64,000 bases of DNA from NCBI GenBank assembly GCA_012959605.1, contig DUCU01000066.1, positions 15,319 through 79,318 on the forward strand, read 5' to 3'. Below the pieces are notes generated by a model, which was not told the DNA's origin, ran no database searches, and saw nothing but the letters and a program-made list of their open reading frames with translations. The position numbers and the translations under genes were made by a program. Positions within the stretch are counted from its first letter, which is position 1; the number at the start of each line of letters is the position of its first letter. Shown here piece after piece: positions 5,461-55,152 of this stretch. The DNA comes from Dehalococcoidia bacterium (GTDB lineage Bacteria; Chloroflexota; Dehalococcoidia; Lucifugimonadales; UBA3495).

Positions 5461-6933
5461 ATGGAATACGAAACAGTCATTGGCCTAGAAGTACACGTCC
5501 AACTGCGGACCCAGAGCAAGATGTTTTGCTCCTGCCGGGCCGATTACCAGACCGCACCCGCGAACAGCCGAGTTTGTCCCGTATGCCTCGGTCTGCCGGG
5601 AACCCTACCGGTCATCAACAAGAAGGCCGTTGAGTTCACCATCATGACCGGCTTGGCCTTGGGCTGTGAAATACCCAAACTGACCAAGTTTGACCGCAAG
5701 AACTACCCCTACCCGGACCTGATGAAGGGGTACCAGATATCTCAGTTTGATCTGCCATTGGCCTTGAACGGCGAGATGGACATCACCGCCGACGGCCAGG
5801 ACCGAACGGTCCGCGTGGAACGAGTCCACCTGGAAGAGGATGTTTCCAAGCTCCAGCACGTTAGTGATGAAAACGATGACCCCCATAGCCTGGTCGACGT
5901 GAACCGCTCCGGAGTTCCACTCATGGAGGTAGTTAGCCACCCGGACATGCGCACTCCGGAAGAAGCCCGTTCTTACCTGACCAAGCTGCACTCGATTATC
6001 CAATACTTAGGAGTTTCCACCGCTAACGCCCAGGATGGCAGCTTCCGTTGCGATGCCAACATCAGCCTGCGGCCGGTGGGACAGAAAGAATACGGCACCA
6101 AGGCTGAGATTAAGAACATGAACAGCCTCCGGGCAGTATTCATGGCCCTGAACCACGAACAGGAACGCCAAAAGAGAGTCCTGGATTCAGGAGAACGCGT
6201 CATTCAGGAGACTCGTGGCTGGTCTGAGGAGCGTAGCGCGACGTATTCTCAGCGCAGCAAGGAAGAGGCTCACGACTATCGGTATTTCCCAGAGCCAGAC
6301 CTGCCCCCTCTAGTGATTGAAGACTCCTGGATCGAAGAACTTAGAAACAATCTTCCTGAGTTGGCTACTGACCGGCTAGCAAGGTTCACAGATCAATACG
6401 GGCTTCCCGAGTACGATGCCAGGCTGTTGACCAACTCCAAGGGCATGGCCGACTACTACGAGCAGGCAACCAGACTCCACGCCACAGACAGCGATAATGG
6501 CCAGAAGTTTGCCAAGAATGTTAGTAACTGGATTCTGGGCGACCTGAGTCGCCTGCTGAACTTGGAAGACCGTCTGATAGACGAATCACCGGTGCCCCCA
6601 GAAAGCCTGGTTGAGTTGATTGACCTGGTGGACAAAGACACGGTTAGCGTATCCATGGCCAAAACGGTCTTGGAAGAAGCCTTTGAATCCGGTGGTTCAC
6701 CGGCGCAGATAGTCCAAGAAAAGGGATATACTCAGATAAGCGATTCTTCCGCTGTCGATGAGGCGGTTGGCCAGGCCATTGACGCCAACCCACAGGCAGT
6801 GGCGGATTACATGGGCGGAAAAGAAACCGCCGCCAAATTCCTGGTGGGCCAGGTGATGAAAATCACCAAGGGTCAGGCCAAGCCCGACCTAGTTAATGAA
6901 CTGGTCGTTGTGGCCTTGGAAAAACTCAAGTAA
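5461..6933 (+). CDS. gatB: Asp-tRNA(Asn)/Glu-tRNA(Gln) amidotransferase subunit B
   Basis: 490 aa with MEYETVIGLEVHVQL..KMFCSC...CPVCLGLPGTLPVIN and a C-terminal YqeY-like tail. No gatA or gatC is adjacent. Confidence 0.95.
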   Translation: MEYETVIGLEVHVQLRTQSKMFCSCRADYQTAPANSRVCPVCLGLPGTLPVINKKAVEFTIMTGLALGCEIPKLTKFDRKNYPYPDLMKGYQISQFDLPLALNGEMDITADGQDRTVRVERVHLEEDVSKLQHVSDENDDPHSLVDVNRSGVPLMEVVSHPDMRTPEEARSYLTKLHSIIQYLGVSTANAQDGSFRCDANISLRPVGQKEYGTKAEIKNMNSLRAVFMALNHEQERQKRVLDSGERVIQETRGWSEERSATYSQRSKEEAHDYRYFPEPDLPPLVIEDSWIEELRNNLPELATDRLARFTDQYGLPEYDARLLTNSKGMADYYEQATRLHATDSDNGQKFAKNVSNWILGDLSRLLNLEDRLIDESPVPPESLVELIDLVDKDTVSVSMAKTVLEEAFESGGSPAQIVQEKGYTQISDSSAVDEAVGQAIDANPQAVADYMGGKETAAKFLVGQVMKITKGQAKPDLVNELVVVALEKLK

Positions 6934-7262: not shown

Positions 7263-8102
7263 ATGAAATCGCCACTGCTGGTATTCACCACCGACTTTGG
7301 GCTGTCCGACGCCTATGCGGGCGTCATGAAGGGCGTAGCCCTCTCCATCAACCCCAACCTCCGCTTCATAGACCTCTCCCACCAGATATTGCCTCAGAAC
7401 GTGGCTCAGGGCTCGTTCCTACTTGGGATCAACCACAAGTATTTCCCGAACCACGCCATCCAAGTCGCTGTAGTTGATCCCGGTGTAGGCACCGACCGCA
7501 GACCCATACTTCTCACCACCCCTTGCGGGAGCTTTGTCGCCCCGGATAACGGCCTGCTCAGCGGGGTGATTTCCAGCTACCTAACATCAGTTTCTGCTGA
7601 AGCTGGCTTGGTAGAACTGCCATCCCCGCTTACAGCGGTGCACCTGACCAACGAGAAATATTGGCGTCACCCAGTCAGTGAGACCTTTCATGGGCGAGAC
7701 GTTTTTACGCCGGTGGCGGCTCACCTGTCACTAGGAGTCGCGCCTGAAGACTTGGGTGAGCCAGTGAGCCGTGTCTTCTTTCTGCCATTGCCTCAGCCTG
7801 TAACGAACGGCGACGAGATTACCGGGCAGGTGATCTACCAAGACGTCTACGGCAACTTAATCACAAATATCTTGGCTGAAACTCTATACGGTTTGGGGAA
7901 CGTCGCAGTTCTGATAAAGAACCGTAGAGTTGCTGGGTTGAGCCGCACCTTCAACGACAATACCCATGTGAATGGGGATGGATTGATCGCGTTGGCTGGC
8001 AGTCATGGTTATTTGGAGGTTGCTGTGGCCAACGGAAACGCAGGAATCCTCTTGGAGGCAGGCGAGGGAGAGCCGGTTACGGCCGTGACTCACTCAAGTT
8101 GA
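7263..8102 (+). CDS. SAM hydroxide adenosyltransferase family protein (DUF62, fluorinase/chlorinase-like)
   Basis: 279 aa with LVFTTDFGLSDAYAGVMKGV..VAVVDPGVGTDRRP..APDNGLLS..FHGRDVFTPVAAHL, hallmark DUF62 motifs. Confidence 0.8.
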   Translation: MKSPLLVFTTDFGLSDAYAGVMKGVALSINPNLRFIDLSHQILPQNVAQGSFLLGINHKYFPNHAIQVAVVDPGVGTDRRPILLTTPCGSFVAPDNGLLSGVISSYLTSVSAEAGLVELPSPLTAVHLTNEKYWRHPVSETFHGRDVFTPVAAHLSLGVAPEDLGEPVSRVFFLPLPQPVTNGDEITGQVIYQDVYGNLITNILAETLYGLGNVAVLIKNRRVAGLSRTFNDNTHVNGDGLIALAGSHGYLEVAVANGNAGILLEAGEGEPVTAVTHSS

Positions 8103-10432: not shown

Positions 10433-11671
10433 TTGCGGCGTATCAACTACAGTTGGGTGATTCTGGCTACTGGGTTCTTCATCCTATTCTTTAGCGGTGG
10501 CTCCAGGTTTGCGTTCGGCCTGATGCTTAAGCCCATGTCTGAAGACCTTGATGTCAGCCGGTCTACCCTCTCCCTGGCGGTGACCACTTTCATGGTGGTT
10601 TCGGCACTGGCGTTGCCTTTCGTGGGACGGTTGGTGGATAACTGGAGTTTGAAGCACACCATTGGCATCTCTGCCGTGTTGGGTGGTGTGGGCATCGGCT
10701 TGATGGGACAGGTGGACGCTGTCTGGCAGGTGTTCATCGTCTACGGAGTGATCTACGCCCTCGGTAACGCAGGGTCGTCTATATCACCTGTAACTGTGAT
10801 GATTAGCCGCTGGTTCCCCAATCGGCTCGGCATCGCTAGCAGTGGAGCCGTGGCAGGAAATGCGGTTGGACAGTTGTTTATAGTCGTGGCCCTGGCCGCA
10901 ATCTTGGTTTCTTTGGACTGGAGATGGTCGTTTAGAGTGCTGGGCATCGTCTATCTCGCCGTCATGGTGCCATTGGTTTACTTGGCAGTTAGAGACAAAC
11001 CGGCGGTCGAAAGTCAAACGTCGCATGACGTAATACGGCCGACAATCTCGCCTCCCAATTCAGTGCTTTCGTTGCGGCGGGCGTTGACCTCCAGGCAGTT
11101 GGTGTTATTGGCGGTCATTTATGGGATCTGCGGGATCCAAGACTTCTTCGTCGCGACCCACATCGTCGCATTTGCGCGTGACCAGGGAATGGGTCCGGTT
11201 CTATCGGGGAATATGCTGGCGCTCATGGGGTTAATGGGTTTGGTGGGAACGCTAGGATCCGGATTTCTGGCCGACAAATTTGGCGCGGTGCGGCCTACAA
11301 TCATTTGCTTCATGGTCCGCATGTCCATTTTTGCCCTCATCATCTTCGACCAGAGCACATCATCGATTATGGTGTTTGGGCTGCTCTACGGGCTCACATT
11401 CTTAGTGACCGCTCCGCTGACTGTGGTCTTCGTGGGTAACATCTTCGGCATGGCGCGGATGGGCACCCTAGCGGGGTCGATATCGATGGTGCACCAGATC
11501 TCCGGCGGCTTAGGGGCGTTCGTCGGAGCGTGGATCTTCGATAACCGTGGTAGTTACGACGATGCATTCAAGCTGATGCTGATATTGGCGGTGATCGCTG
11601 CAATTCTGACGCAGTTTATTCGTGAAAGGCCAGTAACTGAACCCCCTACTTCGTCGCCACTTGCACAATGA
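10433..11671 (+). CDS. MFS transporter
   Basis: 412 aa, about 12 predicted TM segments. It has a TTG start with GGAG 5 nt upstream. Its 3' end overlaps the convergent methyltransferase gene by 26 nt. Confidence 0.8.
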   Translation: MRRINYSWVILATGFFILFFSGGSRFAFGLMLKPMSEDLDVSRSTLSLAVTTFMVVSALALPFVGRLVDNWSLKHTIGISAVLGGVGIGLMGQVDAVWQVFIVYGVIYALGNAGSSISPVTVMISRWFPNRLGIASSGAVAGNAVGQLFIVVALAAILVSLDWRWSFRVLGIVYLAVMVPLVYLAVRDKPAVESQTSHDVIRPTISPPNSVLSLRRALTSRQLVLLAVIYGICGIQDFFVATHIVAFARDQGMGPVLSGNMLALMGLMGLVGTLGSGFLADKFGAVRPTIICFMVRMSIFALIIFDQSTSSIMVFGLLYGLTFLVTAPLTVVFVGNIFGMARMGTLAGSISMVHQISGGLGAFVGAWIFDNRGSYDDAFKLMLILAVIAAILTQFIRERPVTEPPTSSPLAQ

Positions 11672-13276: not shown

Positions 13277-14128
13277 TTAGTGAAAGAGCTGGCCGCCATT
13301 AACATTGTAGGCCTGGCCGGTGATGAAAGAGGCGTCCTCGCCCGCCAGAAATGCCACCATATTTGCCACATCCTGAGATTCGGCAATGCGACCCAGCGGC
13401 GTATTCTGGGAGGAACTGGCCACGATCTGGCCCCTGAACTCTTCCTGAGTGATGCCCCTTTCGGCGGCCTGATCGCGCTCCCAATAACTCATACGGTCGG
13501 TGTTGATGGGTCCGGGACAAACCGCATTTACGGTGATGTTGTGGGGCGCCAGGTCCATGGCTGAGGCCTGGGTCAGGCCGATGACGGCGAACTTGGATGT
13601 CGAGTAAGCCGCTCCGTTGGCGCTGGCCTGCTTGCCGGCGTTGGAGGCGATGTTGATGATGCGACCTCCGTTACCGGCATCGATCATGTGGCGAGCCGCA
13701 AACTTGGTGGCCAGGAACACAGCAGTGGTATTGATGGACAGAAAATGGTCCCAAACTTCTTTATCCAACTCTGTAACCGGCACTTTGTCCTTGCCGATGA
13801 TCGCCCGAGCGTTGTTGACCAGAATATCTATACGACCAAACTTGGCGATGGTGTCTGCCACCATCCGTTCTATCTGCGCCGGGTCTGACAGGTCGCAGTA
13901 GATTGGTAAAGCGATGCGGCCCAACGCCTGGACTTCTTCGGAGACAGTTTCAATCCCTCCCCATTCTTCGCGGACCTCGGCCGGCGGCAAATCTGAAACC
14001 TCACGGCGAACGTCGGATAGGGCGATATCTGCGCCCTGTCCGGCAAGTTTCATTACAGTCGCCCGACCCACGCCGCGCATACCGCCGGCGCCGGTGATCA
14101 ATACTACTTTTCCGTCTAATCCAGGCAT
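13277..14128 (-). CDS. SDR-family oxidoreductase
   Basis: 283 aa with TGAGGMRGVGRA (Rossmann), NNA and YSTSKFAV (catalytic YxxxK). It lies 24 nt upstream of SDMT on the same strand. GGAGG precedes the ATG. Confidence 0.85.
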   Translation of the reverse strand: MPGLDGKVVLITGAGGMRGVGRATVMKLAGQGADIALSDVRREVSDLPPAEVREEWGGIETVSEEVQALGRIALPIYCDLSDPAQIERMVADTIAKFGRIDILVNNARAIIGKDKVPVTELDKEVWDHFLSINTTAVFLATKFAARHMIDAGNGGRIINIASNAGKQASANGAAYSTSKFAVIGLTQASAMDLAPHNITVNAVCPGPINTDRMSYWERDQAAERGITQEEFRGQIVASSSQNTPLGRIAESQDVANMVAFLAGEDASFITGQAYNVNGGQLFH

Positions 14129-16950: not shown

Positions 16951-18576
16951 ATGGCCAAAGAAACAAACAGCAAGCCCAATCGCAGCCTCTCAGGCCTAGA
17001 AGTGAAGCCGGTCTACACTCCAGAAGACTTGGCCAATACCGATTTTGTCCGTGACCTGGGTCAACCCGGCGAGTTCCCATTCACCCGTGGCCCCTATCCC
17101 AATATGTACCTGGGTCGACTCTGGACCAGGCGTCAGATTGCAGGATTCGGCACCGCCCAGGCCACCAACGAACGGTACAGATTCCTGCTGGACCACGGTC
17201 AGAACGGCATCAGCACCGACTTTGATCACCCAACCCTGACCGGCTACGACTCGGACCACGACCTAGCTGAGGGTGAGGTTGGCCGTCTGGGTGTCGCGAT
17301 AGACTCGGTCCAAGATATGGATGACCTGTTCCTGGATATACCGCTGGACAAGGTCAGCGTGTCTCTGACCATCAACCACCCGGCCATCGTGTTAATGGGC
17401 ATGTTCTTGTCGGTCTCCGAGAAGCGAGGCGTTGACTGGAAGGCCCTGCGCGGTACAGTGCAAAACGACTCGTTGAAAGAATTCCACGGCCAAAAGACCT
17501 TTGCCTTGGGGCCAGGGCCGTCACTCAAGCTGACCACCGACATTGTGGAGTTCTGTACCAAACAGGTGCCCAACTGGTACACAATCTCGATCTCGGGCTA
17601 CCACATCCGCGAGAGCGGATCAGATGCTATCCAAGAACTCGCGTTCACCATTGCCCAGGGTATGGCCTACGTTGAGTCGGCCCTAGAACGAGGACTGCCT
17701 GTGGACAGCTTTGCGCCCAGGTTGTCGTTCTTCTTTGGCTGCCACAATGACGTATTTGAAGAGGTTGCAAAGTTCCGGGCCGCACGACGCATGTGGGCCC
17801 GAATCATGAAGGAACGCTACAACGCCCAGAAACCAGAGTCCATGCGGCTGCGGTTCCACACCCAGACCCTTGGCTCAACGCTCATGCGGCAAGACCCGCA
17901 AAATAACATCGCCCGAGGCACTTTGCAGGCACTGGCCGCAGTGCTGGGCGGGACACAATCTCTCCACGTCAGCGGGTTCGACGAAGCCTTTGACATTCCC
18001 TCAGAAGAAGCCATGCGTATGTCCCTGGCCACACAATTGATCCTCTCCCACGAGTCCGGCGTGACCAACACCGTTGACCCGATGGCCGGCTCCTATTTCA
18101 TGGAGAGCATGACCAACGACATTGAAGAAGCCGCCTGGGAATACATCTCCAAAATTGAGGCGTTGGGAGAGGGGCAGTACCAGATAAAGTCAGGCCTGCT
18201 CCACGCGATTGACACCGGCTACATCGAGCTTGAGATTGCCCGCTCGGCCTACGAGTACCAACTCAAGATCGAAAGTGGTGAGCAGGTGGTGGTCGGATTA
18301 AACCAGTACCAATCAGAGAGCAACCAAAAACTGGAGCTTTTCCAGTTCGACCCCGAAGAAGAGGAATGGCAGAAGGGACGGCTGGCGGAGATTCGCGGTG
18401 GCCGCAGTCCGGCAGATGTGAAGTCGGCGCTCGCCTCGCTGAAACAAGACGCTCAAGATGATAAGAACTTGATGCCAGCCGTTTTGGCGGCAGTAGGTGC
18501 CATGGCCACAGAGGGCGAGATTCTAGACACCATGCGCGACATCTACGGCGAGTACGTAGACCCGGGGGTGTTTTAG
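16951..18576 (+). CDS. B12-dependent acyl-CoA mutase large (substrate-binding) subunit, HcmA-like
   Basis: 541 aa with [63 protein letters not shown], the methylmalonyl-CoA mutase TIM-barrel family. It has Ile63 (17137..17139) and Asp90 (17218..17220) at the specificity positions (see findings). Confidence 0.85.
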
Positions 18577-18578
18577 CC

Positions 18579-19004
18579 GTGACTCAGCAAACAAACATCA
18601 AAGTCCTGTTGGCCAAGATTGGTCTGGACGGGCACGACCGCGGCATCAAAGTCATCGCCAGAGCCATGCGCGACGCGGGCATGGAAGTTGTTTACATGGG
18701 CATGCGGGTCACGCCAGATCAGATAGCTCAAACGGCGTTGCAAGAAGATGTCGATGTCGTGGGTATCAGTATCCTGTCTGGTGCTCACATGCGGCTGATT
18801 CCCCGCCTGACCAAGGCGCTGCAAGAAAGGGAAATCAGCAATGATATTCTCCTGATGGTCGGTGGCACCATTCCCGAAGACGACGTTGAGCCGTTACACG
18901 AACTTGGCGTACAGGGTGTCTTTCCCGTGGGCAGCTTCACCACTTCCATGACCGAATTCATCACCGAAAACATCAGCCGAGGCCGTTCCGCGCCGCAAGC
19001 TTAA
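18579..19004 (+). CDS. acyl-CoA mutase small subunit, cobalamin-binding domain (HcmB/IcmB-like)
   Basis: 141 aa. It has a GTG start 2 nt after the upstream stop, and [18 protein letters not shown] contains the DxHxxG B12-binding motif. Confidence 0.85.
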
Positions 19005-19028
19005 TCCCCAATCAGAGAGACCGCACCT

Positions 19029-20429
19029 ATGCAATGGCCTCCCAAATACCCCGATAACTATCGCCCAGATTCGGATCAGGAATACTGGTCTCCTGAACTG
19101 GAGACTATGCCGACTGCCGAACGGGACCAACACATTCTGGCCAAGCTGCAATCCCAGGTGCGTTACGCCTACCAGAACTCCGGCTTCTACAAAGAATTCT
19201 ACAAAGATCTGCCCGTAGACCCGGCCAACCTCCAGAGCTTGGAAGAATTTGAGCAGTTGCCGATCCTCACAAAAGAAAACATCCGCCACGAACAGGAACA
19301 ACACCCACCCTACGGACGGTTCCTCTGCGTGACTCCAGAAGAGATTTTTCGCATTCACGGCACTTCGGGCACCACCGGACGCCCCACCGTGTTCGGCATC
19401 AGCAATGACGACTGGGATCGCATTGGCGAGGCCCATGCCCGTATCCTCTGGGGCGCAGGACTCAGAAAAGACGACACAGTGATGGTAGCCGCTGTCTTCA
19501 GCCTGTACGTGGGTAGCTGGGGTGCCTTGGTCGGCGCAGAACGGTTGGGGGCTACCTGCTTTCCCTTTGGCAGCGGCGCGCCTGGGCAGACGGAGCGTGC
19601 CGTTGAGTGGTGCAAAATGGTAAAGCCATCAGCCCTCTATGCCACGCCGTCTTATGCCCTCTATCTAGCCGAGACCGCAAGGCAGATGGGGTTCGACCCC
19701 AAAGAAGACTTTGGCTTTAGGTTCATGTTCTTCTCGGGCGAGCCTGGGGCCAGCGTACCGGCCACCCGACGCCTAATTGAAGAAACCTTTGGTTGCTATA
19801 TAGTCGACCAGGGCAGCATGGCCGAGATGACACCCTGGATGAGCAACTCGGGCTGCCGCCATCTGGACGGAGGAATGCACCTGTGGCAAGACATTGTCTA
19901 CACGGAGATGGTCGACCCTCAGACCAAGTTGAACCTGGCAATGGGCGAGGAGGGAGTACCGGTCTATTCCCACACAGAACGGACCTCACAGCCGATGATT
20001 CGCTATTGGTCAGGAGACATTGCCCGGTGGGACATGGTGGACTGCCCATGCGGCCGCACCTACCCAACTCTGGTCACCGGCATCTACGGAAGAGTCGATG
20101 ACATGATCATAGTTCGAGGCCAGAACGTGTTCCCATCACGCATCGAAGACGTGCTCCGGAGCATGGACGAATTTGGCGGAGAGTTCCGCTTGGTGCTGGA
20201 ACGGGAGACCGGACAGATGGACCGGCTAACCGTGCAGGCAGAAGTGGTTGCTGAAGCCTACGCCTCCCAGGAGTTCAACCCGACGGAGTTGGAGCAGATA
20301 CGAGAACGGTTCACCGCAGAGCTACGCCGCGCCATTGGCGTCAGCGTTACCGTGCAACTGAAGCCTGCTGGTGAGTTTGAGCGGACCCAGTTCAAAGCCC
20401 GCCGCATCATCGACCTGCGCACTCCCTAA
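19029..20429 (+). CDS. PaaK-type (phenylacetate-CoA ligase family) acyl-CoA ligase
   Basis: 466 aa with HGTSGTTGRPTVF (P-loop-like AMP motif), FSGEPG and GRVDDMIIVRGQNVFP, typical of the PaaK/F390-synthetase clade. Confidence 0.8.
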   Translation: MQWPPKYPDNYRPDSDQEYWSPELETMPTAERDQHILAKLQSQVRYAYQNSGFYKEFYKDLPVDPANLQSLEEFEQLPILTKENIRHEQEQHPPYGRFLCVTPEEIFRIHGTSGTTGRPTVFGISNDDWDRIGEAHARILWGAGLRKDDTVMVAAVFSLYVGSWGALVGAERLGATCFPFGSGAPGQTERAVEWCKMVKPSALYATPSYALYLAETARQMGFDPKEDFGFRFMFFSGEPGASVPATRRLIEETFGCYIVDQGSMAEMTPWMSNSGCRHLDGGMHLWQDIVYTEMVDPQTKLNLAMGEEGVPVYSHTERTSQPMIRYWSGDIARWDMVDCPCGRTYPTLVTGIYGRVDDMIIVRGQNVFPSRIEDVLRSMDEFGGEFRLVLERETGQMDRLTVQAEVVAEAYASQEFNPTELEQIRERFTAELRRAIGVSVTVQLKPAGEFERTQFKARRIIDLRTP

Positions 20430-20463
20430 TACCCTTTTCTAGATTCAGAACAGGGGCGAGAAA

Positions 20464-21642
20464 ATGACATCCAGAAGGCCATCATTCAGCACATTGGACC
20501 ACTCACTGGGCGAGACAATCGACTTGATTCGAGACACGGTGCGTCAGTTCTCAACTCAGGAGATTGCCCCACGGGCTGATGAGATAGACCAGACTGACCA
20601 ATTCCCCAGAGACCTTTGGCCCAGGCTCGGCGACTTGGGTCTGCTGGGCATGACGGTCTCCGAGGAATACGGCGGCGCCGGACTTGGCTACCTGGCACAT
20701 ACCATCACTGTGGAAGAGATTTCTCGGGGCTCGGCTAGCGTTGGCCTCAGCTACGGTGCCCACTCCAATTTGTGCGTCAACCAGATATCCCGTAACGGCA
20801 ACGACGACCAGAAGCGACGCTACCTGCCCAAGTTGATCAGTGGGGAGCACGTGGGCGCGTTGGCTATGAGCGATCCTGATGCCGGTTCCGATGTAGTGAG
20901 CATGACGCTCAGGGCCGATAAGAAGGGCGACCACTACATCTTGAACGGCACCAAGATGTGGATTACCAACGGCCCCGACGCCGATACCCTGGTAATCTAC
21001 GGCAAGACTAACCCCAAAGCAGGCTCCCACGGCATTACCGCGTTTTTGGTGGAGAAAAGGTTTGCGGGATTTGCAGCTTCTCCCAAGCTGAACAAGCTGG
21101 GCATGCGCGGCTCCAGCACGTCAGAGTTGGTCTTTCACGATTGTGAAGTGCCTGAGGAGAACGTGCTTGGCGAGGTTGATCACGGCGTCCAGGTGCTGAT
21201 GAGCGGATTGGATTACGAACGGCTGGTCCTGGCCGGCGGCCCCCTGGGCATCATGCAATCTTGTTTGGACGTGGTGGTGCCTTATGTCCACCAGCGTGAA
21301 CAGTTCGGCCAGCCAATCGGCGAGTTTCAATTGATCCAGGCGAAACTGGCCGATATGTACACCGCCCTATCGGCTTGCCAGTCATACACCTACGCAGTGG
21401 CCCGCGCTGCCGACCAAGGGCAGAGCATACGCAAAGACGCCGCTGGGTGTCTGCTGTTCACTGCCGAGCATGCCACCCAAATGGCGCTCCAGGCAGTGCA
21501 AACATTGGGCGGGAACGGCTACATCAACGACTCGCCAACCGGCCGACTGCTGCGAGACGCCAAGCTCTACGAGATTGGCGCCGGCACCAGCGAGATACGC
21601 CGGATACTCATTGGCCGGGAGCTCTTCCGAGAGTCTGCGTAG
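20464..21642 (+). CDS. isovaleryl-CoA dehydrogenase-like acyl-CoA dehydrogenase
   Basis: 392 aa with [69 protein letters not shown], close to recalled IVD sequences. Confidence 0.8.
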
Positions 21643-22450: not shown

Positions 22451-22624
22451 TTTCTAGACTGAAAGTGGGTAGTTTAGATATTGGCCAACGAGTTTGGCCC
22501 ATAACCCACGCCCACAAAACTGGGTCCATCGAGTTTTACCTGAGAATTTCACCTGAGATTTCCAAGGGAACCAAGACCCTGGCGTCCGTGTCGCAGAATT
22601 GCGACCAAGTGAGGGAGGATGGGA

Positions 22625-25501
22625 ATGCGGTATTCGATATTGCGGCTGCCAATCACACTAATGTTACTGGCTCTGGTTGTGGTGGCCTTCTTCGCCAATC
22701 AATCAAATCTTCATGCGGAAGACGATCACGGTGATTACCGTTTCACTTCCACCAACCTGAGTATTGGTGCTGGGGCTGTTTCTGGCGTCATCAATACCGC
22801 CGACATCCTGTTTGATGTGGACTATTTCTCTTTCCAGGCAAAGAGGGGCGTTCGATACACCTTCCTTTTGGACGAAGTCACGGTGGTTGACGCCAATATT
22901 TCAATAATTAACTCCCTGTCACGCGGCAACAACAGTTCCCCTGAGCAGGAACTTACGGTTTCGGGCGGTCAAAAGACTGTCGACTGGATTGCCAGGACCA
23001 CTGATACCTACTACGTGGAAGTCGCCGGGACTATCAACGCGTTTGACGGTTCTTTCTACCTGGGTGACTACACCATCAGCGGATTTGAAGATACCAGCCT
23101 GCTGGATCGGCACTCCGACGAGCGCAACGGCGCAACCAGTATCTCCCCAGGAAACGTTTACCAGGGTGCGGTTAGTCCTTGGAGTAACCAGCCCAGCCTA
23201 GCCAGCACCGTTGACGGCGGAGACGACTTCGATTTCTATTCGTTCCAAGCCCAACGTGGCGTGAAATACAACGTTGAGGTCGACCTAGCCACATCTGAAG
23301 GAGTTGAGATAGCCATCCACACCACTTTTGCCGGCATCGAGAAGACCAGCGACGGCATTGGCAGCACGCTGAGTTGGATATCTCCAAACAACGACACGTA
23401 TTACGTGTCTGTATCCGGAACGAGTCGGGTGCGCGATTCCAATGGCACCTACGCCATCAAGCTGAATGCCGAGACCGACCTTCTCGACCACCACACAGAT
23501 TCCGTGACCGGAGCAACCGTAGTCAGCTTTGGCAATGCCCACCAGGGCTCGATTAGCCCGGCCAATGACCTAGATTACTTCTCCTTCCCCGCCCTGCGCG
23601 GCGTTAAATACATGATGGAAGCATCTCTAGGCAGCGCTGACGGTGTTAATCTCACCATAATCGACGCTGACCAAACCAGCCTGGCTTCCAATGGCGGTGT
23701 GGGCACCAGTCTAGAGTGGCTGGCTCCTGCCAATGGCACTTTTCTAGCGATAGTCTCAGCCTCGCCCCAGGTCCCCAATGTTATTGGAACCTATTCTTTA
23801 AACCTGAGCAGCGATACCACCCTACAGGACCACCACGGTGATTCCACTGGGGCGGCATCTGTCCTCAGCTTTGGCAACGCTCATCAGGGTGCGGTCAGCC
23901 CCAATACCGACCGAGACTACTTCATGTTCCCGGCAGAACGAGGGGTCAACTACACATTGGAGTTGGACCTGCTGACCGCCGACGGTGCAGTCATATCCAT
24001 AGAGAACCCCGCAGGAGACACACTGAGCAGCACCAACGGCCTGGGCACTGGTCTAGGTTGGACGGCGGCCAGTACCGGCTTGTTCTACGTGGTGGTGTCC
24101 CATTCACCCCAGGCAAATGAGGGCATCGGCACTTACGCGTTAACAGTCTCAGCCAACACCAGCTTGGAAGACCGTCACTTGGACACGGCTTCAAGTGGCA
24201 CTCCTCTGAGTTTTGGCACTATCTATCAGGGAGCGATCAGCCCCCAGTCTGACTTGGATTATTTCTCATTCCCCGCTGAGCGCGGAGTTGAATATCTGCT
24301 GGACATGACTTATGGGTCAGCAACGGCAGTTTCATTTGAAGTAAGCAGTTTGGACGGGAGTTCAGATAGCGGCGCTCGTAACTTCGGAGAGAGCAACATT
24401 ATCCGATGGACGTCTCCGGACTCGGGCACCTATTACGTCAGGGTTTCAGCCTCGGCAAAAGCACTGGAACCAACAGGTACGTACACACTGAAGGTCACGC
24501 CTGATCTGGCACTGCAAGATCGGCATAGCGACGCTGCCAGCAATGGCACTCGCATCGGATTTGGCAACGCCATCAGAGGCGCCATCAGCCCGTTAACCGA
24601 CTATGACTATTTCGAGTTCACCGCAGAGCAGGGAATCACCTACACCGTAGATGTGAGACCTGAAACCGCCGAAGGCGTCCGGTTCTCAGTTGAGAGCCAA
24701 ATAGTAGGTTTCTCCATTTCCAACTTCGGCCTGGAACAATCTCTGGAGTGGGAGGCCCCAACATCGGGGGCATACATACTCGCCGTATCGGCCTCCGAAC
24801 GAGTGGGCAAGTCCGTTGGCACTTATTCCATCACCGTCAACCGACAAAGTGACGCGCGACCTGAGGTACCCAAGGTAATCGAACCGGATCCAGAACCGGT
24901 GCCAGATATACCCCTACCCAAGATCATCGCCCCAGACGGGACCGCAATGATCCTTGAGTCCAGGGTTTCACCGTTGGGGAGCATTGTCCGGGTTCCGGTG
25001 GAACTGAGCCAAGCGTCGGGTATCACCAGTCTTGGGTTCACGCTGAACTACGACCCCAACGCACTCCGAGTGTTCAACGTAGAACGGGGTTCCAGACTAA
25101 CTGAGGACTCATTCAGCTATGACAATGATTTACCGGGACAGGTGCGGTTTGGATTTGCCGTGACTCAGGGTTCAGAATCCAGTGGTACTGCGGCCGTTGT
25201 GTCCTTCCAGGTAGTAGGGGCTGAGGGTTCAGTTAGCCCAATCACCCTATCAGACGCCTTGGTAAATCACCGAGCCGAGGGTCCTTTGACTGTGGAACTG
25301 GTTGGAGCTGACTTCAGAGTCGGTTCCAAGATACTGGGCGACGCCGATGGCGACAGTCTAGTTACAGCGCTGGACGCTTTGCTGGCCCTGAAGATGGCCG
25401 CAGGCGGCACCAGGATAGACCTTTCCTTGGACGTCAACAATGACGGCAAGATTACCATTGATGACGCCCGAATAATTCTGAACATGGCCCGACCTAGTTA
25501 G
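22625..25501 (+). CDS. secreted protein: signal peptide, 6 PPC-like repeats, Pro-rich linker, cohesin domain and dockerin domain
   Basis: The ORF runs 22619..25501. The GGAGG at 22614..22618 abuts ATG 22619, so ATG 22625 is the likelier start. The signal peptide is LRLPITLMLLALVVVAFFANQSNLHA. Domain details are in the separate entries below. Confidence 0.8.
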   Translation: MRYSILRLPITLMLLALVVVAFFANQSNLHAEDDHGDYRFTSTNLSIGAGAVSGVINTADILFDVDYFSFQAKRGVRYTFLLDEVTVVDANISIINSLSRGNNSSPEQELTVSGGQKTVDWIARTTDTYYVEVAGTINAFDGSFYLGDYTISGFEDTSLLDRHSDERNGATSISPGNVYQGAVSPWSNQPSLASTVDGGDDFDFYSFQAQRGVKYNVEVDLATSEGVEIAIHTTFAGIEKTSDGIGSTLSWISPNNDTYYVSVSGTSRVRDSNGTYAIKLNAETDLLDHHTDSVTGATVVSFGNAHQGSISPANDLDYFSFPALRGVKYMMEASLGSADGVNLTIIDADQTSLASNGGVGTSLEWLAPANGTFLAIVSASPQVPNVIGTYSLNLSSDTTLQDHHGDSTGAASVLSFGNAHQGAVSPNTDRDYFMFPAERGVNYTLELDLLTADGAVISIENPAGDTLSSTNGLGTGLGWTAASTGLFYVVVSHSPQANEGIGTYALTVSANTSLEDRHLDTASSGTPLSFGTIYQGAISPQSDLDYFSFPAERGVEYLLDMTYGSATAVSFEVSSLDGSSDSGARNFGESNIIRWTSPDSGTYYVRVSASAKALEPTGTYTLKVTPDLALQDRHSDAASNGTRIGFGNAIRGAISPLTDYDYFEFTAEQGITYTVDVRPETAEGVRFSVESQIVGFSISNFGLEQSLEWEAPTSGAYILAVSASERVGKSVGTYSITVNRQSDARPEVPKVIEPDPEPVPDIPLPKIIAPDGTAMILESRVSPLGSIVRVPVELSQASGITSLGFTLNYDPNALRVFNVERGSRLTEDSFSYDNDLPGQVRFGFAVTQGSESSGTAAVVSFQVVGAEGSVSPITLSDALVNHRAEGPLTVELVGADFRVGSKILGDADGDSLVTALDALLALKMAAGGTRIDLSLDVNNDGKITIDDARIILNMARPS
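22721..24844 (+). repeat. six tandem protein-level repeats of about 112-126 aa (pre-peptidase C-terminal/PPC-like)
   Basis: Each unit opens with D-(H/R)-H-x-D (DDHGD, DRHSD, DHHTD, DHHGD, DRHLD, DRHSD). Each then has G.A..(L/V)SFGN..QGA(I/V)SP..D.DYF.F.A.RGV.Y, then TYYV.VS, then GTY.L. The units are divergent at DNA level. Confidence 0.75.
24932..25318 (+). other. cohesin-like domain (approximate bounds)
   Basis: VRVPVELSQASGITSLGFTLNYDPNALRVFNVERGS...GQVRFGFAV...GTAAVVSFQVVGAEGSVSPITLS follows the recalled cohesin pattern (v.v.v..g.qf.l.YDp..l....v..G...i.F...G.G.la...F.v). Confidence 0.6.
25337..25489 (+). other. dockerin-like domain (two EF-hand-like Ca-binding segments)
   Basis: GDADGDSLVTALDALLALKMAAG and LDVNNDGKITIDDARIILNMA form a duplicated DxDxDG...D plus helix arrangement, typical of type-I dockerins. 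Confidence 0.65.
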
Positions 25502-25512
25502 GGGAGTAGATT

Positions 25513-26193
25513 ATGCGCTGGATGTTAGAAGTAGCATTTATCGGCTTATCCACCAGTTGGAAATGGTTGCTTGGCTCAACGGCCGCGGTCGCAATTCTGG
25601 TGGGATTATTGTTCGGAGTGGGAGTTTTGGGTGGCGGTGACAGTAGCGACACTGATCCTGGCGGGCCTTTTGTTGCCGCCCCGCCAACACCAAGTCCCGC
25701 TCCTAACGCGACACCAAGGCCCGCTCCTAAGGCGACACCAAGGCCAACTCAGGCGGTTGCTGCAACACCAGTGCCTTCGGCTACGCGGGTGCCCGCAGCG
25801 CCGGCCAAGGTGATCTCAGTGCCCATATTGGCCACCCGGGCCGCCAACGTCGGCAGCCTGGAGTTTGTCTTGGTCTACGACCCGGCCAAGCTGGAATTTG
25901 CCCAGGTTGAACGTGGCCTGTTGTCCGGTGATGCCTTGATCGACTCTAGTTCATCAGAGCCAGGCCGACTTTGGGCTGGCATCATCGATATGCAGGGGAT
26001 TAACGGTAGCGGCCCGGTGGCCGTGGTGAAATTTCGAGTGCGCGACGGTGTATCTGGGGCCATGCCTCTAAGTTTGGAGAGTATCGCGGCGTTTGATGCC
26101 AATACACTGGTCGACATTGTCACTGGGACCACAGATGGGGAGTTCAATGTCACAGAGCTCCATCCCCTGTCGCCCATAGTCACTTTCCAATAA
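25513..26193 (+). CDS. membrane-anchored cohesin-domain protein (TM helix, Pro/Thr linker, cohesin)
   Basis: 226 aa. GGGGAG lies 6 nt upstream, and the gene starts 11 nt after the upstream stop. It has a TM helix (AAVAILVGLLFGVGVLGG), a PT-rich linker and a cohesin-like VGSLEFVLVYDPAKLEFAQVERG..GPVAVVKFRVRDGVSGAMPLSL (about 25807..26151). Confidence 0.7.
   Translation: MRWMLEVAFIGLSTSWKWLLGSTAAVAILVGLLFGVGVLGGGDSSDTDPGGPFVAAPPTPSPAPNATPRPAPKATPRPTQAVAATPVPSATRVPAAPAKVISVPILATRAANVGSLEFVLVYDPAKLEFAQVERGLLSGDALIDSSSSEPGRLWAGIIDMQGINGSGPVAVVKFRVRDGVSGAMPLSLESIAAFDANTLVDIVTGTTDGEFNVTELHPLSPIVTFQ
25696..25743 (+). repeat. 24-nt tandem duplication in the linker (PAPNATPR/PAPKATPR)
   Basis: CCCGCTCCTAA(C/G)GCGACACCAAGG occurs twice back to back with one mismatch. 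Confidence 0.85.
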
Positions 26194-26984: not shown

Positions 26985-28058
26985 ATGCACGTTGGATCGT
27001 CTACCTTTTTCCAGAACCACCGCCAGGCAATGACCGACTTGGAGATCTATCGGAACGAGCTGCGCCTGGCCGACATGGTTGAACCGTTGGGCTTCGACTC
27101 AATCTGGGGGGTGGAACACCATTTCACCGACTACACCATGTGCCCAGACGTTCTGCAGTTTCTTTCCTACATGGCCGGACGAACCCAAACGGTGCAACTA
27201 GGTAGCATGGTGGTGGTTCTGCCCTGGCACGACCCGCTTAGGGTAGCTGAGCAATTCTCCGTGCTTGACCATCTTAGCGCCGGAAGGGCGATAATCGGCG
27301 TTGGCCGGGGTCTGGCCAGAGTTGAATTTGATGGATTCAAGATAGAGATGTCAGAGTCCAGGGCCAGGTTCGCGGAGAGCACCAAGTTATTGGTTGATGC
27401 CCTTGAAGAGGGCTTCGCCGAGTTCCAGGGTGAACTGATCAAACAGCCTAGGGTGGAAATCAGGCCCAGACCCTACAAGAGTTTCAAGGGCCGGACTTAC
27501 GCTGCCGCAGTCTCTCCGGAATCTTCGTTGGCGCTGGCCCAATTGGGCCTCGGCATGTTGATCATCCCCCAGAAGCCGTGGAGCGAGGTTGAAGCCGAAC
27601 TCAAGTCCTACCGAGAGATCTACCAGGAGATCAATGGCGAGCCAGCACCGCCTCCGATAGTGGTCGGGTTCACGTTCTGTCACGAAGACGAAGAAACGGC
27701 CCGAGAGATGGCCAGCGAGTATATCGGCAATTACTGGGACTCGATAATGGACCACTACGAGTTCCACAGTGACCACCTGAAAGAGACCAAGGGCTACGAG
27801 TACTACGGCAAGTTCACCGAGAAGATAGAACAATACGGAAACCAGGACGTGAAGGACTTCTTTCTGGACCTGCAGGTATGGGGAACTCCCGACCAGTGCT
27901 ACGAAAAGATCATGAAAACTCGAGGCCGTACCGGAAGCGAATCATACATAGGCGCGTTTAGTTTTGGCGGAATGCCCTACGGTGAGGTTGAAAAGAGCAT
28001 GAAACTCTTCGCCGAAAAGGTGATGCCCAGGCTGAAAGGAGTACTGGCTGCGGTGTAA
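26985..28058 (+). CDS. LLM-class (luciferase-like) flavin-dependent monooxygenase
   Basis: 357 aa with GFDSIWGVEHHF, LDHLSAGRAIIGVGRG and an overall bacterial-luciferase TIM-barrel pattern. Confidence 0.8.
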   Translation: MHVGSSTFFQNHRQAMTDLEIYRNELRLADMVEPLGFDSIWGVEHHFTDYTMCPDVLQFLSYMAGRTQTVQLGSMVVVLPWHDPLRVAEQFSVLDHLSAGRAIIGVGRGLARVEFDGFKIEMSESRARFAESTKLLVDALEEGFAEFQGELIKQPRVEIRPRPYKSFKGRTYAAAVSPESSLALAQLGLGMLIIPQKPWSEVEAELKSYREIYQEINGEPAPPPIVVGFTFCHEDEETAREMASEYIGNYWDSIMDHYEFHSDHLKETKGYEYYGKFTEKIEQYGNQDVKDFFLDLQVWGTPDQCYEKIMKTRGRTGSESYIGAFSFGGMPYGEVEKSMKLFAEKVMPRLKGVLAAV

Positions 28059-31113: not shown

Positions 31114-31944
31114 TTAAGGCGCTGCATCTGCGCTCGGATCCCAAATCCAATATTTTGCGACCGCGCCCGCATCGACTCTAAGGTCAGTCCCGGTGATCAT
31201 CTCAGCCTCGTCAGAGGCCAAAAAAGACGCTGCTTTGGCGTAATGGCGAGGGCTTGGCAGCTTCTGGAGAGGCGACCCGGTGCTGGGGTCTGCCAGCCAG
31301 CCGCTGGAACGCTGCCCGCCCCTAGGCCCTGGCCATTCAACGCCCCAACGCTTCGCGCGCTCAAACGCCTCTGTTCGGTCGGTGGCCGTCGGGGTCAGGC
31401 TGTTCACCCTGATCCCATATTTAGCCAATTCCATGGCTACGGACCGGGTGAAATTCATCAGGCCACCCTTGGCGGTACCGTAACCGATGTTGCCCGGTTC
31501 ACCCTGGTGACCTGCCGTGGAGATGATGTTGATCATGTTGCCTTTGCGCCCCAGGTCAATCATCTGTTTGGCGGCATATTTGGTGAACAAAAAGGCCCCC
31601 GTCAGCATCACGTCGGTCTGCCTCCGCCATTCATCCACAGGCATATCTAATACGCCCTTCCAGTTGAAGACAGTGGCGCCGTTGACCAAGATGTCCACTC
31701 CGCCAAAAGTCTCTTTGGCCAGGTCCACAGCGGCAATCACCTGCGCTTCGTCGGTCACGTCACAGGCGATGGTGATGGCTTCGCGTCCCAAATCTTTTAC
31801 AGCCTGGGCACATTTCTCAGCGTAGGCGGGGTTTATGTCAACACAGACCACGTTGGCCCCTTCCTCAGCCATGCCTTCTGCGATACCGCCCATGATGTTT
31901 GGGCTGGTGCCGGTTACCAGAGCAACTTTTCCGTCAAGTTTCAT
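31114..31944 (-). CDS. SDR-family oxidoreductase
   Basis: 276 aa with GKVALVTGTS..GGIA, NGA and YGTAKGG (YxxxK). Confidence 0.8.
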   Translation of the reverse strand: MKLDGKVALVTGTSPNIMGGIAEGMAEEGANVVCVDINPAYAEKCAQAVKDLGREAITIACDVTDEAQVIAAVDLAKETFGGVDILVNGATVFNWKGVLDMPVDEWRRQTDVMLTGAFLFTKYAAKQMIDLGRKGNMINIISTAGHQGEPGNIGYGTAKGGLMNFTRSVAMELAKYGIRVNSLTPTATDRTEAFERAKRWGVEWPGPRGGQRSSGWLADPSTGSPLQKLPSPRHYAKAASFLASDEAEMITGTDLRVDAGAVAKYWIWDPSADAAP

Positions 31945-33688: not shown

Positions 33689-35038
33689 TTAGTCTGAAGA
33701 CAGGGCGGCGCTGTGGTCGTCAATGCGTTGCATCAGGTCTATGATGACCGGCATCGCAGGGCCGTAACGGTCAGCGTCGTCAATTCCGTAGCCCTTGTGG
33801 TAGGCAGAACGGAAGTTGGCGATGGCGCCACCAGCTCCGGTTACTGAGGAGTTACCCTCGTCCCAGATGCCACCGTGGATCAAGTCAGGCATGGCGTCTG
33901 GCTCACGGAAGACGTTTTTGGGGTCACCGCCGTCCTCCACAACACGCATTTGCTCCTCAAATTGGCGGCGCATGAACACGATAGGCAGGTCGGTGCGGCC
34001 CAGTTGCTCCGACGTCCGGTCGTATATCTCACCCTGGGAGACCCAGGCATGGGCGTCTTGAGCGAGAACGAAATCCCACAACGGTTTACCGTCTTCATCA
34101 AAGATCGGAATGTCGTAGTAGGGAATTGAGTCTTGCACCGGGGCAGGGACTGCTGTTGGGGCTGTGTAGCAGCCGTAGGCAATGTGATAGGTGCTGACGT
34201 CGTCGATGGGCACCCGAATCTGAAACTCCTGACGCACTTGGCCAGGTCCGCCGGTCTGAGTGTAGAACGGGAATATCACCGTGGAGTGTCGAGACTGGCG
34301 GTCTTTATCTGCTCCCATGGCCTTGGAGTAATTGATTCCTTTTTCCATGCCGTATTGGGTCTCATGGGCGTAAAGGGACTCAATGCCACGACCCATGTCG
34401 ATTCTTGAGTGCAGGGTAGACATCTGTCTGTCTTTCGTTCGTTCTTCCAGGTCACCGTTTTTCTCCAGCATATGTTTGAACATGTAGCCGTGAAGGTAAA
34501 CGCTGTGGGCCGGGTCGCCGGTGTTTTCATGGCACTGGAGCCAGTTGCATTCCAGCACCGAGATACCGATCTGGCGGATGGCGTTGGGCATCACAAACAG
34601 GTCCCAAGGAGCAAGCAGAGGCACCGGCTGTGGGCCCATGTAAGCCCAGACCAACCCGCCCATTTCCCGCACGGGATAGGCGGCTATTTTTACTTGGTCT
34701 TTGAGTTTGTTGGTGGGCGATTCCAGGGGAGTGTCAATGCACTGGCCGTCCGGAGCGAACTCCCAGCCGTGATAGCAGCAGCGTAGGCCGTCTTCGTCGG
34801 GGATTCCAAACTTCATCAGGACTGCTCGATGGGGACAGCGCTCGCCGACCAGACCCAGTTCGCCCTTCTTCGTGATGAAGAGAACCAAGTCCTCGCCAAG
34901 AATCCTAATTGGCATCACTTCTTCTTCTTTCAGCTGCGATAGCGGCCGCACCGGTAACCAATAACGGCGCATCAATTCGCCCATTGGTGTTCCCGGGCCA
35001 ACTCTGGTTAGTCTTTCTTGAGCTTCGGCGGTCAGCAT
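33689..35038 (-). CDS. Rieske [2Fe-2S] aromatic-ring-hydroxylating oxygenase alpha subunit
   Basis: 449 aa with the Rieske motif CPHR..(17 aa)..CCYHGW and the mononuclear iron motif NTGDPAHSVYLH (D-x2-H-x4-H). No beta subunit, ferredoxin or reductase is adjacent. Confidence 0.85.
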   Translation of the reverse strand: MLTAEAQERLTRVGPGTPMGELMRRYWLPVRPLSQLKEEEVMPIRILGEDLVLFITKKGELGLVGERCPHRAVLMKFGIPDEDGLRCCYHGWEFAPDGQCIDTPLESPTNKLKDQVKIAAYPVREMGGLVWAYMGPQPVPLLAPWDLFVMPNAIRQIGISVLECNWLQCHENTGDPAHSVYLHGYMFKHMLEKNGDLEERTKDRQMSTLHSRIDMGRGIESLYAHETQYGMEKGINYSKAMGADKDRQSRHSTVIFPFYTQTGGPGQVRQEFQIRVPIDDVSTYHIAYGCYTAPTAVPAPVQDSIPYYDIPIFDEDGKPLWDFVLAQDAHAWVSQGEIYDRTSEQLGRTDLPIVFMRRQFEEQMRVVEDGGDPKNVFREPDAMPDLIHGGIWDEGNSSVTGAGGAIANFRSAYHKGYGIDDADRYGPAMPVIIDLMQRIDDHSAALSSD

Positions 35039-55030: not shown

Positions 55031-55152
55031 GCCATTCCATAGGCGGATAGGAAATTTTGAATTGACGCTGCCCAGGTCTCAACTCAAACGGCCGGGCAGC
55101 TTCGGATCCAAATCAAAACGATTGATCCGACAAGAATATTGGAGATTAAAGA

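Follow-up and report, generated by a model that had tools for sequence, protein, structure and literature searches.

The stretch of DNA analysed here (64,000 nucleotides, hereafter the window) comes from a SAR202/Dehalococcoidia bacterium and contains, at positions 16951-21642, the genes of a split acyl-CoA mutase, a CoA ligase and an acyl-CoA dehydrogenase. The first three genes, at 16951-20429, likely form a catabolic entry route for 2-hydroxyisobutyrate (2-HIBA). All four open reading frames (ORFs) lie on the plus strand, head to tail and tightly spaced, with intergenic gaps of 2 nt (from the stop codon of the large-subunit gene to the GTG start of the small-subunit gene), 24 nt (from the small-subunit gene to the start of the ligase gene) and 34 nt. 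The features of the cluster are as follows.

16951-18576, plus strand: large (substrate-binding, TIM-barrel) subunit of a split adenosylcobalamin (AdoCbl)-dependent acyl-CoA mutase, HcmA-like, 541 aa (PF01642, 4R3U_A)
17137-17139, plus strand: Ile63 codon, aligned to HcmA Ile90 and to Tyr89 of the P. shermanii methylmalonyl-CoA mutase (MCM) (alignments, column statistics)
17218-17220, plus strand: Asp90 codon, aligned to HcmA Asp117, which is Ala in MCM and in isobutyryl-CoA mutase (ICM) (alignments, column statistics)
17491-17493, plus strand: Gln181 codon, aligned to HcmA Gln208, which is Arg207 in MCM (alignments, column statistics)
18579-19004, plus strand: small B12-binding subunit, HcmB-like, 141 aa, GTG start (PF02310, TIGR00640)
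18627-18644, plus strand: DxHxxG motif of the small subunit (D17-G22, DGHDRG)
19029-20429, plus strand: ortholog of 2-hydroxyisobutyrate-CoA ligase (HCL), 466 aa (match to PDB 6HDW)
19506-19508, plus strand: Tyr160 codon of the ligase, aligned to HCL Tyr164
19734-19736, plus strand: Ser236 codon of the ligase, aligned to HCL Ser239
20464-21642, plus strand: ortholog of isovaleryl-CoA dehydrogenase (IVD), 392 aa (match to PDB 4KTO)

Family and signature residues of the mutase and the ligase

The large subunit contains a full-length MM_CoA_mutase domain (PF01642, E = 1e-202), in agreement with its original assignment to the methylmalonyl-CoA mutase family. Its best match in PDB is 4R3U_A, the large subunit of 2-hydroxyisobutyryl-CoA mutase (HCM), with 525 bits; the human MCM scores 440 bits, the P. 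shermanii MCM 407 bits and IcmF 278 bits. The predicted fold is fixed by the sequence identity to 4R3U. The catalytic GYH motif is retained in the form ISISGYH.

Residue numbering was checked on the translated HcmA (562 aa) from the plasmid cluster of Methylibium petroleiphilum PM1, which is natively numbered and has I, D and Q at positions 90, 117 and 208. The window protein contains the motifs RRQ-I63-AGFG and IST-D90-FD, Asp90 coming 27 residues after Ile63. BLASTP places I63 on Ile90, D90 on Asp117 and Q181 on Gln208, and thus the first two residues occupy the HCM specificity positions to which they had been assigned from the sequence alone. In the same columns the human MCM has Y, A and R. 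We take Ile90 and Asp117 of HcmA to be specificity residues, Asp117 being the contact of the substrate hydroxyl and the residue responsible for (S)-specificity. Kurteva-Yaneva et al. reportedly described Ile90 and Asp117 as specificity residues in 2015, with Asp117 touching the hydroxyl group of the substrate. The Tyr and Arg of MCM bind the carboxylate of the methylmalonyl group, Arg207 being the carboxylate-binding residue. A single copy of the DNA pattern corresponding to QIAGF, a spacer of 21 codons and STDFD is present in the window, at 17134-17226, while 100 shuffles gave no copy.

The separate B12 subunit of the predicted split layout corresponds to the ORF at 18579-19004, whose 141-aa product matches PF02310 (E = 1e-27) and TIGR00640 and has the motif D17-G-H-D-R-G22. 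It is 51% identical to HcmB of M. petroleiphilum. Its scores against PDB are 129 bits for HcmB (4R3U_C) and 139 bits for the archaeal protein 2YXB; the small subunit does not discriminate between HcmB and the archaeal MCM small subunits.

The ligase has the architecture of PaaK, with AMP-binding (PF00501) and AMP-binding_C_2 (PF14535) domains. It matches the 2-hydroxyisobutyryl-CoA synthetase structure 6HDW over its full length with 515 bits, compared with at most 218 bits for the PaaK structures, and the NCBIfam PaaK equivalog gives 294 bits, under its cut-off of 646. The identity is 50% to HCL of M. petroleiphilum and 60% to a homolog encoded on a Natrinema plasmid. Tyr160 and Ser236 align with HCL Tyr164 and Ser239, the M. 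petroleiphilum HCL having Y and S at positions 164 and 239. Both residues are kept in 62 of 64 aligned ligases; the two exceptions are one protein entered twice, with T and G, namely Xaut_5040, the PaaK-like ligase next to the pivalyl-CoA mutase of Xanthobacter autotrophicus. Tyr164 and Ser239 are presumably the contacts of the 2-hydroxyl group of the substrate. By these comparisons the window ligase is a clear ortholog of 2-hydroxyisobutyrate-CoA ligase, and the original placement of the neighbouring PaaK-type enzyme close to that ligase is borne out. Taken together, the mutase and the ligase both match best, and by wide margins, the two solved enzymes of the 2-HIBA pathway. When plasmids were searched by tblastn with the mutase, haloarchaeal and MCM-type proteins scored above pPM1, and this search was uninformative alone; the ligase query exposed the reference clusters.

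Phylogenetic position and gene neighbourhoods

A family search with one representative retained per cluster at 50% identity gave 150 relatives. The triplet of residues at HcmA positions 90, 117 and 208 was surveyed in 124 full-length sequences, comprising 118 cluster representatives and six references. I-D-Q was found in five of them: one cluster representative and four references, namely the window protein, HcmA of M. petroleiphilum, Xaut_5021 of Xanthobacter autotrophicus and a Natrinema protein. The triplet is Y-A-R in 59 sequences and F-A-Q in five, the rest having about 50 further triplets.

The species-genome collection was then scanned with the signature DNA pattern, which yielded at least 120 loci, and 95 full-length proteins from these loci were entered into the tree. 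As the loci were chosen by the signature, the presence of I and D in them follows from the selection; the tree is informative on whether representatives lacking the signature nest among the signature sequences. In the neighbour-joining tree, constructed without RcmA, IcmA or ethylmalonyl-CoA mutase references, the 87 non-redundant I-D-Q sequences fall together in a single clade, and no other triplet is nested inside it. Within this clade there is an HcmA-type subclade (58 sequences, 100% bootstrap), to which the M. petroleiphilum and X. autotrophicus proteins belong, and a SAR202-type subclade of 26 sequences (100% bootstrap), which joins three haloarchaeal proteins at 87%. The SAR202-type proteins, among them the window mutase, are thus a robust subclade, sister, with only moderate support, to the characterised proteobacterial HcmA type. 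As anticipated from its residues, the mutase lies outside the MCM (Y-A-R) and ICM (F-A-Q) groups and joins the I-D-Q sequences.

The column statistics are consistent with this position. All members of the I-D-Q clade have I at HcmA position 90, where every MCM-type sequence has Y and the ICM-type ones have F; Asp in the column of HcmA 117 is found in 3% of the family members outside the I-D-Q clade. Four further positions played no part in the selection of loci: the column of HcmA 208 has Q in 100% of both subclades, and K182, G342 and M355 are kept in 100% of the HcmA-type and SAR202-type proteins and are rare or absent elsewhere. A profile hidden Markov model built from HcmA-type sequences only gives the window mutase 795 bits, as against 714 for the MCM-type profile and 658-701 for five other groups, the ICM-type profile giving 688, so that the margin over every other group is 80 bits.

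The survey also showed the variety of the family as a whole. About 55 different triplets occur at HcmA positions 90/117/208 among the 124 sequences (proteins P0121-P0270), and to our knowledge only Y-A-R, F-A-Q and I-D-Q match known specificities. This diversity points to a potentially large number of uncharacterised acyl-CoA mutase specificities.

Gene neighbourhoods were analysed by tblastn of reference proteins on all loci. Since many of the 8-kb blocks are incomplete, the counts, which refer to the matches listed here and below, are minima.

HcmA-type blocks (81): small subunit in 40, ligase in 60, MeaB in 69, IVD in 0
SAR202-type blocks (38): small subunit in 27, ligase in 20, MeaB in 1, IVD in 4

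The HcmA-type loci belong mostly to Alpha- and Betaproteobacteria, and their genes are arranged in the order small subunit, ligase, MeaB, large subunit, often followed by a gene for a thiamine pyrophosphate (TPP) enzyme. The SAR202-type loci have the order large subunit, small subunit, ligase, and are found in metagenome-assembled genomes (MAGs) of Dehalococcoidia, SAR202 and Chloroflexota, in two Acidobacteriota and in one Sumerlaeota. On haloarchaeal megaplasmids the order is TPP enzyme, ligase, large subunit, small subunit, MeaB. Hence the linkage of mutase and ligase persists through at least three different gene orders, and this is therefore good independent evidence that the two enzymes act together. 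Within SAR202/Dehalococcoidia the pair is widespread and conserved, since the first 120 scan matches include at least 38 species-level genomes with a SAR202-type mutase locus. The best 120 matches of the mutase in the database share 88-99% identity with it, those with names coming from Dehalococcoidia, Chloroflexota and SAR202 cluster MAGs, and metagenomes contain many mutase-like proteins in the same range of 88-99% identity.

Clustering of the flanking ORFs of 32 SAR202-type loci revealed no further conserved partner. Genes for a metallo-beta-lactamase-fold hydrolase, a gamma-carbonic-anhydrase-like protein and an aminotransferase occur there sporadically. A gene of the gamma-carbonic-anhydrase family (left-handed beta-helix) also lies beside the HCM clusters of M. 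petroleiphilum (locus L002, 15775-16797) and X. autotrophicus (L004, 16399-17445), and a shorter gene of this family is present in three Dehalococcoidia loci (L016, 6643-7155; L034; L063).

The original prediction had noted that no G-protein chaperone of the MeaB/MeaH type is encoded in the window. Indeed, MeaB (PF03308) was absent from a Pfam scan that covered all 57 window ORFs with a length of 100 aa or more, and tblastn of the window with two MeaB queries yielded only matches of E = 0.3 or worse. The absence is near-general in the SAR202-type loci, the sole MeaB-bearing one being that of the Sumerlaeota MAG (L012). With the MeaB of L012 as a query, MeaB-family proteins about 52% identical to it were retrieved from MAGs of SAR202 and Dehalococcoidia, and two SAR202/Dehalococcoidia MeaB genes sit on contigs with no mutase gene nearby. 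The chaperone of the window mutase is probably supplied by such an unlinked gene, and the orphan MeaB of the lineage could serve both the HCM-like mutase and MCM. The proposal that a meaB-like gene might be found elsewhere thus held for SAR202/Dehalococcoidia MAGs.

The orphan MeaB GTPase genes (L127, 6939-7898; L129, 8001-8951) are located between a gene for a fusion of cysteinyl-tRNA synthetase with a glycosyltransferase and a small unknown ORF. In L012 a MeaB gene comes after the SAR202-type core, and next to it, at 5632-6378, lies the gene of a BadH-like short-chain dehydrogenase/reductase (SDR), which scores 329 bits, below the cut-off, against 2-hydroxycyclohexanecarboxyl-CoA dehydrogenase. 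It is a candidate 3-hydroxyacyl-CoA dehydrogenase that might complete the pathway in that genome.

Predicted pathway and competing explanations

The order of the genes, the family membership, the signature residues and the linkage of mutase and ligase are observed directly. In the pathway proposed here, for which we infer the substrate, the stereochemistry and the direction of flux, the PaaK-type ligase would convert free 2-HIBA with ATP and CoA into 2-hydroxyisobutyryl-CoA. The AdoCbl-dependent split mutase would then shift the CoA-carbonyl group from C2 to a methyl carbon by a radical 1,2-rearrangement, yielding 3-hydroxybutyryl-CoA. Since the mutase possesses the Asp characteristic of the (S)-specific HcmA, the most likely product would be (S)-3-hydroxybutyryl-CoA. 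Finally, enzymes of beta-oxidation encoded outside the window would convert 3-hydroxybutyryl-CoA to acetoacetyl-CoA and further to two molecules of acetyl-CoA. The same 2-HIBA route is known in Aquincola tertiaricarbonis and its relatives (PMC7176365; PMC2847961), and operons that combine hcl with meaH and either hcmAB or rcmAB are described as encoding it (PMC7176365). Thus the HcmA residues and the HCL-ortholog ligase support the originally suggested catabolism of tertiary or branched (hydroxy)acids, with the exception of the dehydrogenase, which had been included in it.

The cluster resembles the HcmAB, HCL and MeaH system (4R3U, 6HDW) of A. tertiaricarbonis L108 and M. petroleiphilum PM1 in its split subunits, the I/D/Q residues, the HCL-ortholog ligase with Tyr and Ser kept, and the co-directional arrangement of mutase and ligase genes. 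However, the identity to the M. petroleiphilum proteins is only 47% for the large subunit, 51% for the small subunit and 50% for the ligase. The known clusters have the order small subunit, ligase, MeaH, large subunit, whereas the window has large subunit, small subunit, ligase. Neither meaH nor genes for a GntR regulator, an adenosyltransferase, a TPP enzyme or a 3-hydroxybutyryl-CoA dehydrogenase are linked to the window cluster.

The closest cultured relatives are encoded on the haloarchaeal plasmids of Natrinema zhouii and Halomarina sp. PSR21, where the large subunit is 54% and the ligase 60% identical. These clusters share the I-D-Q triplet and the position of the small subunit directly after the large one, and differ in having the ligase upstream of the mutase and a TPP enzyme and MeaB in the cluster; their function is predicted. 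These clusters occupy 7221-13683 of L003 (N. zhouii plasmid NZ_CP084883.1) and 6124-12671 of L005 (Halomarina sp. PSR21 plasmid NZ_CP119993.1). No paper on 2-HIBA metabolism in haloarchaea was found in the searchable literature.

Several observations weigh against the assignment of this cluster to 2-HIBA. Firstly, the union of the SAR202-type and HcmA-type subclades has a neighbour-joining bootstrap of only 57-59%, and 49% with the signature columns masked. Secondly, at 47% identity to the characterised HcmA, the mutase is similarly distant from some MCM-type split mutases. Thirdly, 35 positions are fixed differently between the two subclades, and some of them (G180, T183, L307-G308-S309, S341) adjoin signature residues; the substrate range could therefore differ. 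In addition, Pfam scans of the window ORFs revealed neither meaH nor an adenosyltransferase, and likewise no regulator and no 3HCDH-type 3-hydroxybutyryl-CoA dehydrogenase. The SDRs of the window, at 13277-14128 and 31114-31944, are generic and not assignable as 3-hydroxybutyryl-CoA dehydrogenase. The activity of the SAR202-type and haloarchaeal members is predicted. Finally, we know of no source of 2-HIBA in seawater.

These differences could be read in a broader way. The SAR202-type proteins and their haloarchaeal sisters might constitute a functionally distinct HCM subfamily without an operon-encoded chaperone, in which the substitutions next to the active site (G180, T183, L307-G308-S309, S341) tune the choice of substrates, and which would mark an unrecognised natural flux of 2-HIBA or related tertiary alpha-hydroxy acids from recalcitrant marine organic matter, passing through a bacterial group that is among the most abundant of the deep ocean. 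We offer this as a tentative and unlikely proposal.

A distinctly unlikely alternative retains the same pair of enzymes and the same radical chemistry with a shifted or broader substrate, which could be tertiary acids of the 2-hydroxy-2-methylbutyrate type, or lactyl-CoA/3-hydroxypropionyl-CoA, a pair on which characterised HCMs act promiscuously. Lactyl-CoA mutase activity is measurable in the HCM of B. massiliosenegalensis (PMC11599936), and for SAR202 bacteria a role in the breakdown of recalcitrant organic matter of unusual structure was proposed (PMC5395668). The separate, fully supported SAR202-type subclade, its low identity to HcmA and the fixed differences listed above would also fit such a shift. 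However, neither subclade shows any variation in the residues that we take to contact the acyl group (I/D/Q of the mutase, Tyr/Ser of the ligase), in favour of the 2-HIBA route.

Another possibility, which we consider very improbable, is that the mutase is RCM-like and forms (R)-3-hydroxybutyryl-CoA, or that it takes part in acetone assimilation as in Desulfococcus biacutus, where a TPP lyase makes 2-hydroxyisobutyryl-CoA from acetone and formyl-CoA; free 2-HIBA would then not be the substrate. The RcmAB mutase of Kyrpidia tusciae and the RcmAB-like mutase of D. biacutus are B12-dependent and split, and have the same substrate pair as that predicted for the window, with linkage to hcl in Kyrpidia (PMC7176365). 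A pathway combining an RcmAB-like mutase with a TPP enzyme exists in sulfate reducers (PMC7888143; PMC7176365), a 2-hydroxyphytanoyl-CoA lyase was reported in SAR202 genomes (PMC5395668), and a TPP enzyme adjoins the haloarchaeal and many proteobacterial clusters. On the other hand, RcmAB is only distant kin of HcmAB and prefers the (R)-enantiomer (PMC7176365), the cluster has a conserved ligase dedicated to activating an acid, for which the acetone route has no need (PMC7176365), and the window contains no homolog of the TPP lyase (tblastn E >= 0.3). In the family tree the representatives with I-V-x triplets are placed outside the I-D-Q clade. The Asp present in the window mutase separates the (S)-specific HCM from RCM, which has Val; the RcmAB mutases presumably lack this Asp.

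The adjacent dehydrogenase gene suggests a further route, in which the ligase activates pivalate, the mutase interconverts pivalyl-CoA and isovaleryl-CoA, and IVD leads the product into leucine catabolism. The succession of ligase and IVD with a gap of 34 nt fits it neatly. Xaut_5043/5044 of X. autotrophicus Py2, which we take to be the characterised pivalyl-CoA mutase, is likewise a split mutase beside a PaaK-like ligase and MeaB, and its product isovaleryl-CoA would feed an IVD like that at 20464-21642. However, Xaut_5043 is 37% identical to the window mutase, has the triplet L-L-N instead of I-D-Q and falls into another clade; the ligase Xaut_5040 has T and G in place of the Tyr and Ser of HCL and of the window ligase; a buried Asp is not expected with a tert-butyl substrate; and the linkage to IVD, among the matches listed, is limited to the closest relatives and is missing in L042 and in the loci at or below 80% identity. 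This route is hardly credible.

The weakest explanation is that of an ordinary MCM or ICM, and its probability is negligible: superfamily, fold, cofactor and the GYH motif are shared with these enzymes (including IcmF), the homologs bear the public database name 'methylmalonyl-CoA mutase (family protein)' and the NCBIfam MCM equivalog gives 575 bits, under its cut-off of 876, but the Tyr and Arg of MCM are replaced by Ile and Gln, the Phe of ICM is replaced by Ile, the mutase is outside the Y-A-R and F-A-Q groups of the tree and its partner gene is an HCL ortholog.

The enzyme pair of the 2-HIBA route is already known, and nothing suggests new chemistry; what is new is a divergent and ecologically widespread subfamily whose genes are ordered differently and lack a linked chaperone gene. 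No paper combining SAR202 with 2-hydroxyisobutyrate was found in the searchable literature (the subscription literature being outside the search). Among the papers there that name the mutase none treats Chloroflexota, and the sole co-mention of Dehalococcoidia concerns an unrelated lyase. The metabolism of 2-HIBA has been found in few cultured bacteria and its natural source is unclear (PMC7176365), while SAR202 is a dominant lineage of the dark ocean, and what it feeds on has mostly been conjectured from genome content (PMC5395668). If the 2-HIBA reading is true, it provides a concrete, testable substrate for SAR202 and implies that the sea contains a natural pool of tertiary hydroxy acids. 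It would also offer a second, divergent lineage of HCM and HCL for biotechnological routes to 2-HIBA and lactyl-CoA (PMC2847961, PMC11599936). The public labels 'methylmalonyl-CoA mutase' and 'AMP-binding protein' mask the mutase-ligase pair in SAR202.

The dehydrogenase gene and the rest of the window

The dehydrogenase contains three acyl-CoA dehydrogenase (ACAD) domains according to Pfam. Its PDB scores are 629 and 620 bits for the bacterial IVDs 4KTO and 4O5M and 535 for the human IVD 1IVH, with at most 317 bits for other ACADs, which identifies it as a true ortholog of isovaleryl-CoA dehydrogenase. Among the matches listed, IVD follows the ligase in four scan loci (L024, L053, L055, L088) and in L001, whose mutases are 87-96% identical to that of the window; it is absent after the ligase in L042, with a mutase 88% identical, and in all loci at or below 80%. 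IVD is thus a recent neighbour of the mutase-ligase pair. Because its linkage to the ligase is confined to the closest relatives and is not constant even there, IVD is probably outside the 2-hydroxyisobutyrate route and is most likely a neighbouring gene of leucine catabolism. Of the original prediction for this gene, the identity as an isovaleryl-CoA-dehydrogenase-like ACAD stands, and the part in the pathway does not.

An element of the IS21 type (transposase and IstB) is located right after IVD in L001 (15805-17735), L024, L047 and L088, and not in the window, which fits a variable right-hand border of the cluster.

On the other side, an NHL-repeat gene lies upstream of the mutase large-subunit gene at a distance of 95 nt. 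Promoter and terminator scans around the cluster gave nothing interpretable. In the whole 64-kb window no Rfam family reached its gathering score, with no cobalamin riboswitch near the mutase genes, and no tRNAs were found.

Directly downstream of the cluster there are two consecutive genes for cohesin-domain proteins, at 22619-25501 (960 aa) and 25513-26193 (226 aa), the former with an additional dockerin-like domain. Their homologs are in the same position in the SAR202 relatives L001, L042 and L047. Such cellulosome-type modules are unexpected for a genome of pelagic Chloroflexota.

Elsewhere in the window are three LLM luciferase-like monooxygenases (26985-28058, 42315-43160, 47620-48963), five transporters of the major facilitator superfamily (10433-11671, 40326-41702, 43692-44921, 49000-50343, 50406-51737) and a Rieske LigXa-like oxygenase (33689-35038). 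Together with the SDRs, they fit the paralog-rich oxidative repertoire of SAR202 (PMC5395668). A split TPP enzyme has its N- and C-terminal TPP domains in separate ORFs, at 52093-52614 and 52730-53332. The window further encodes a DUF1800/DUF1501 pair (53624-56286), an arylmalonate-decarboxylase-like protein (60900-61700) and a SAM hydroxide adenosyltransferase of the DUF62 family (7263-8102).

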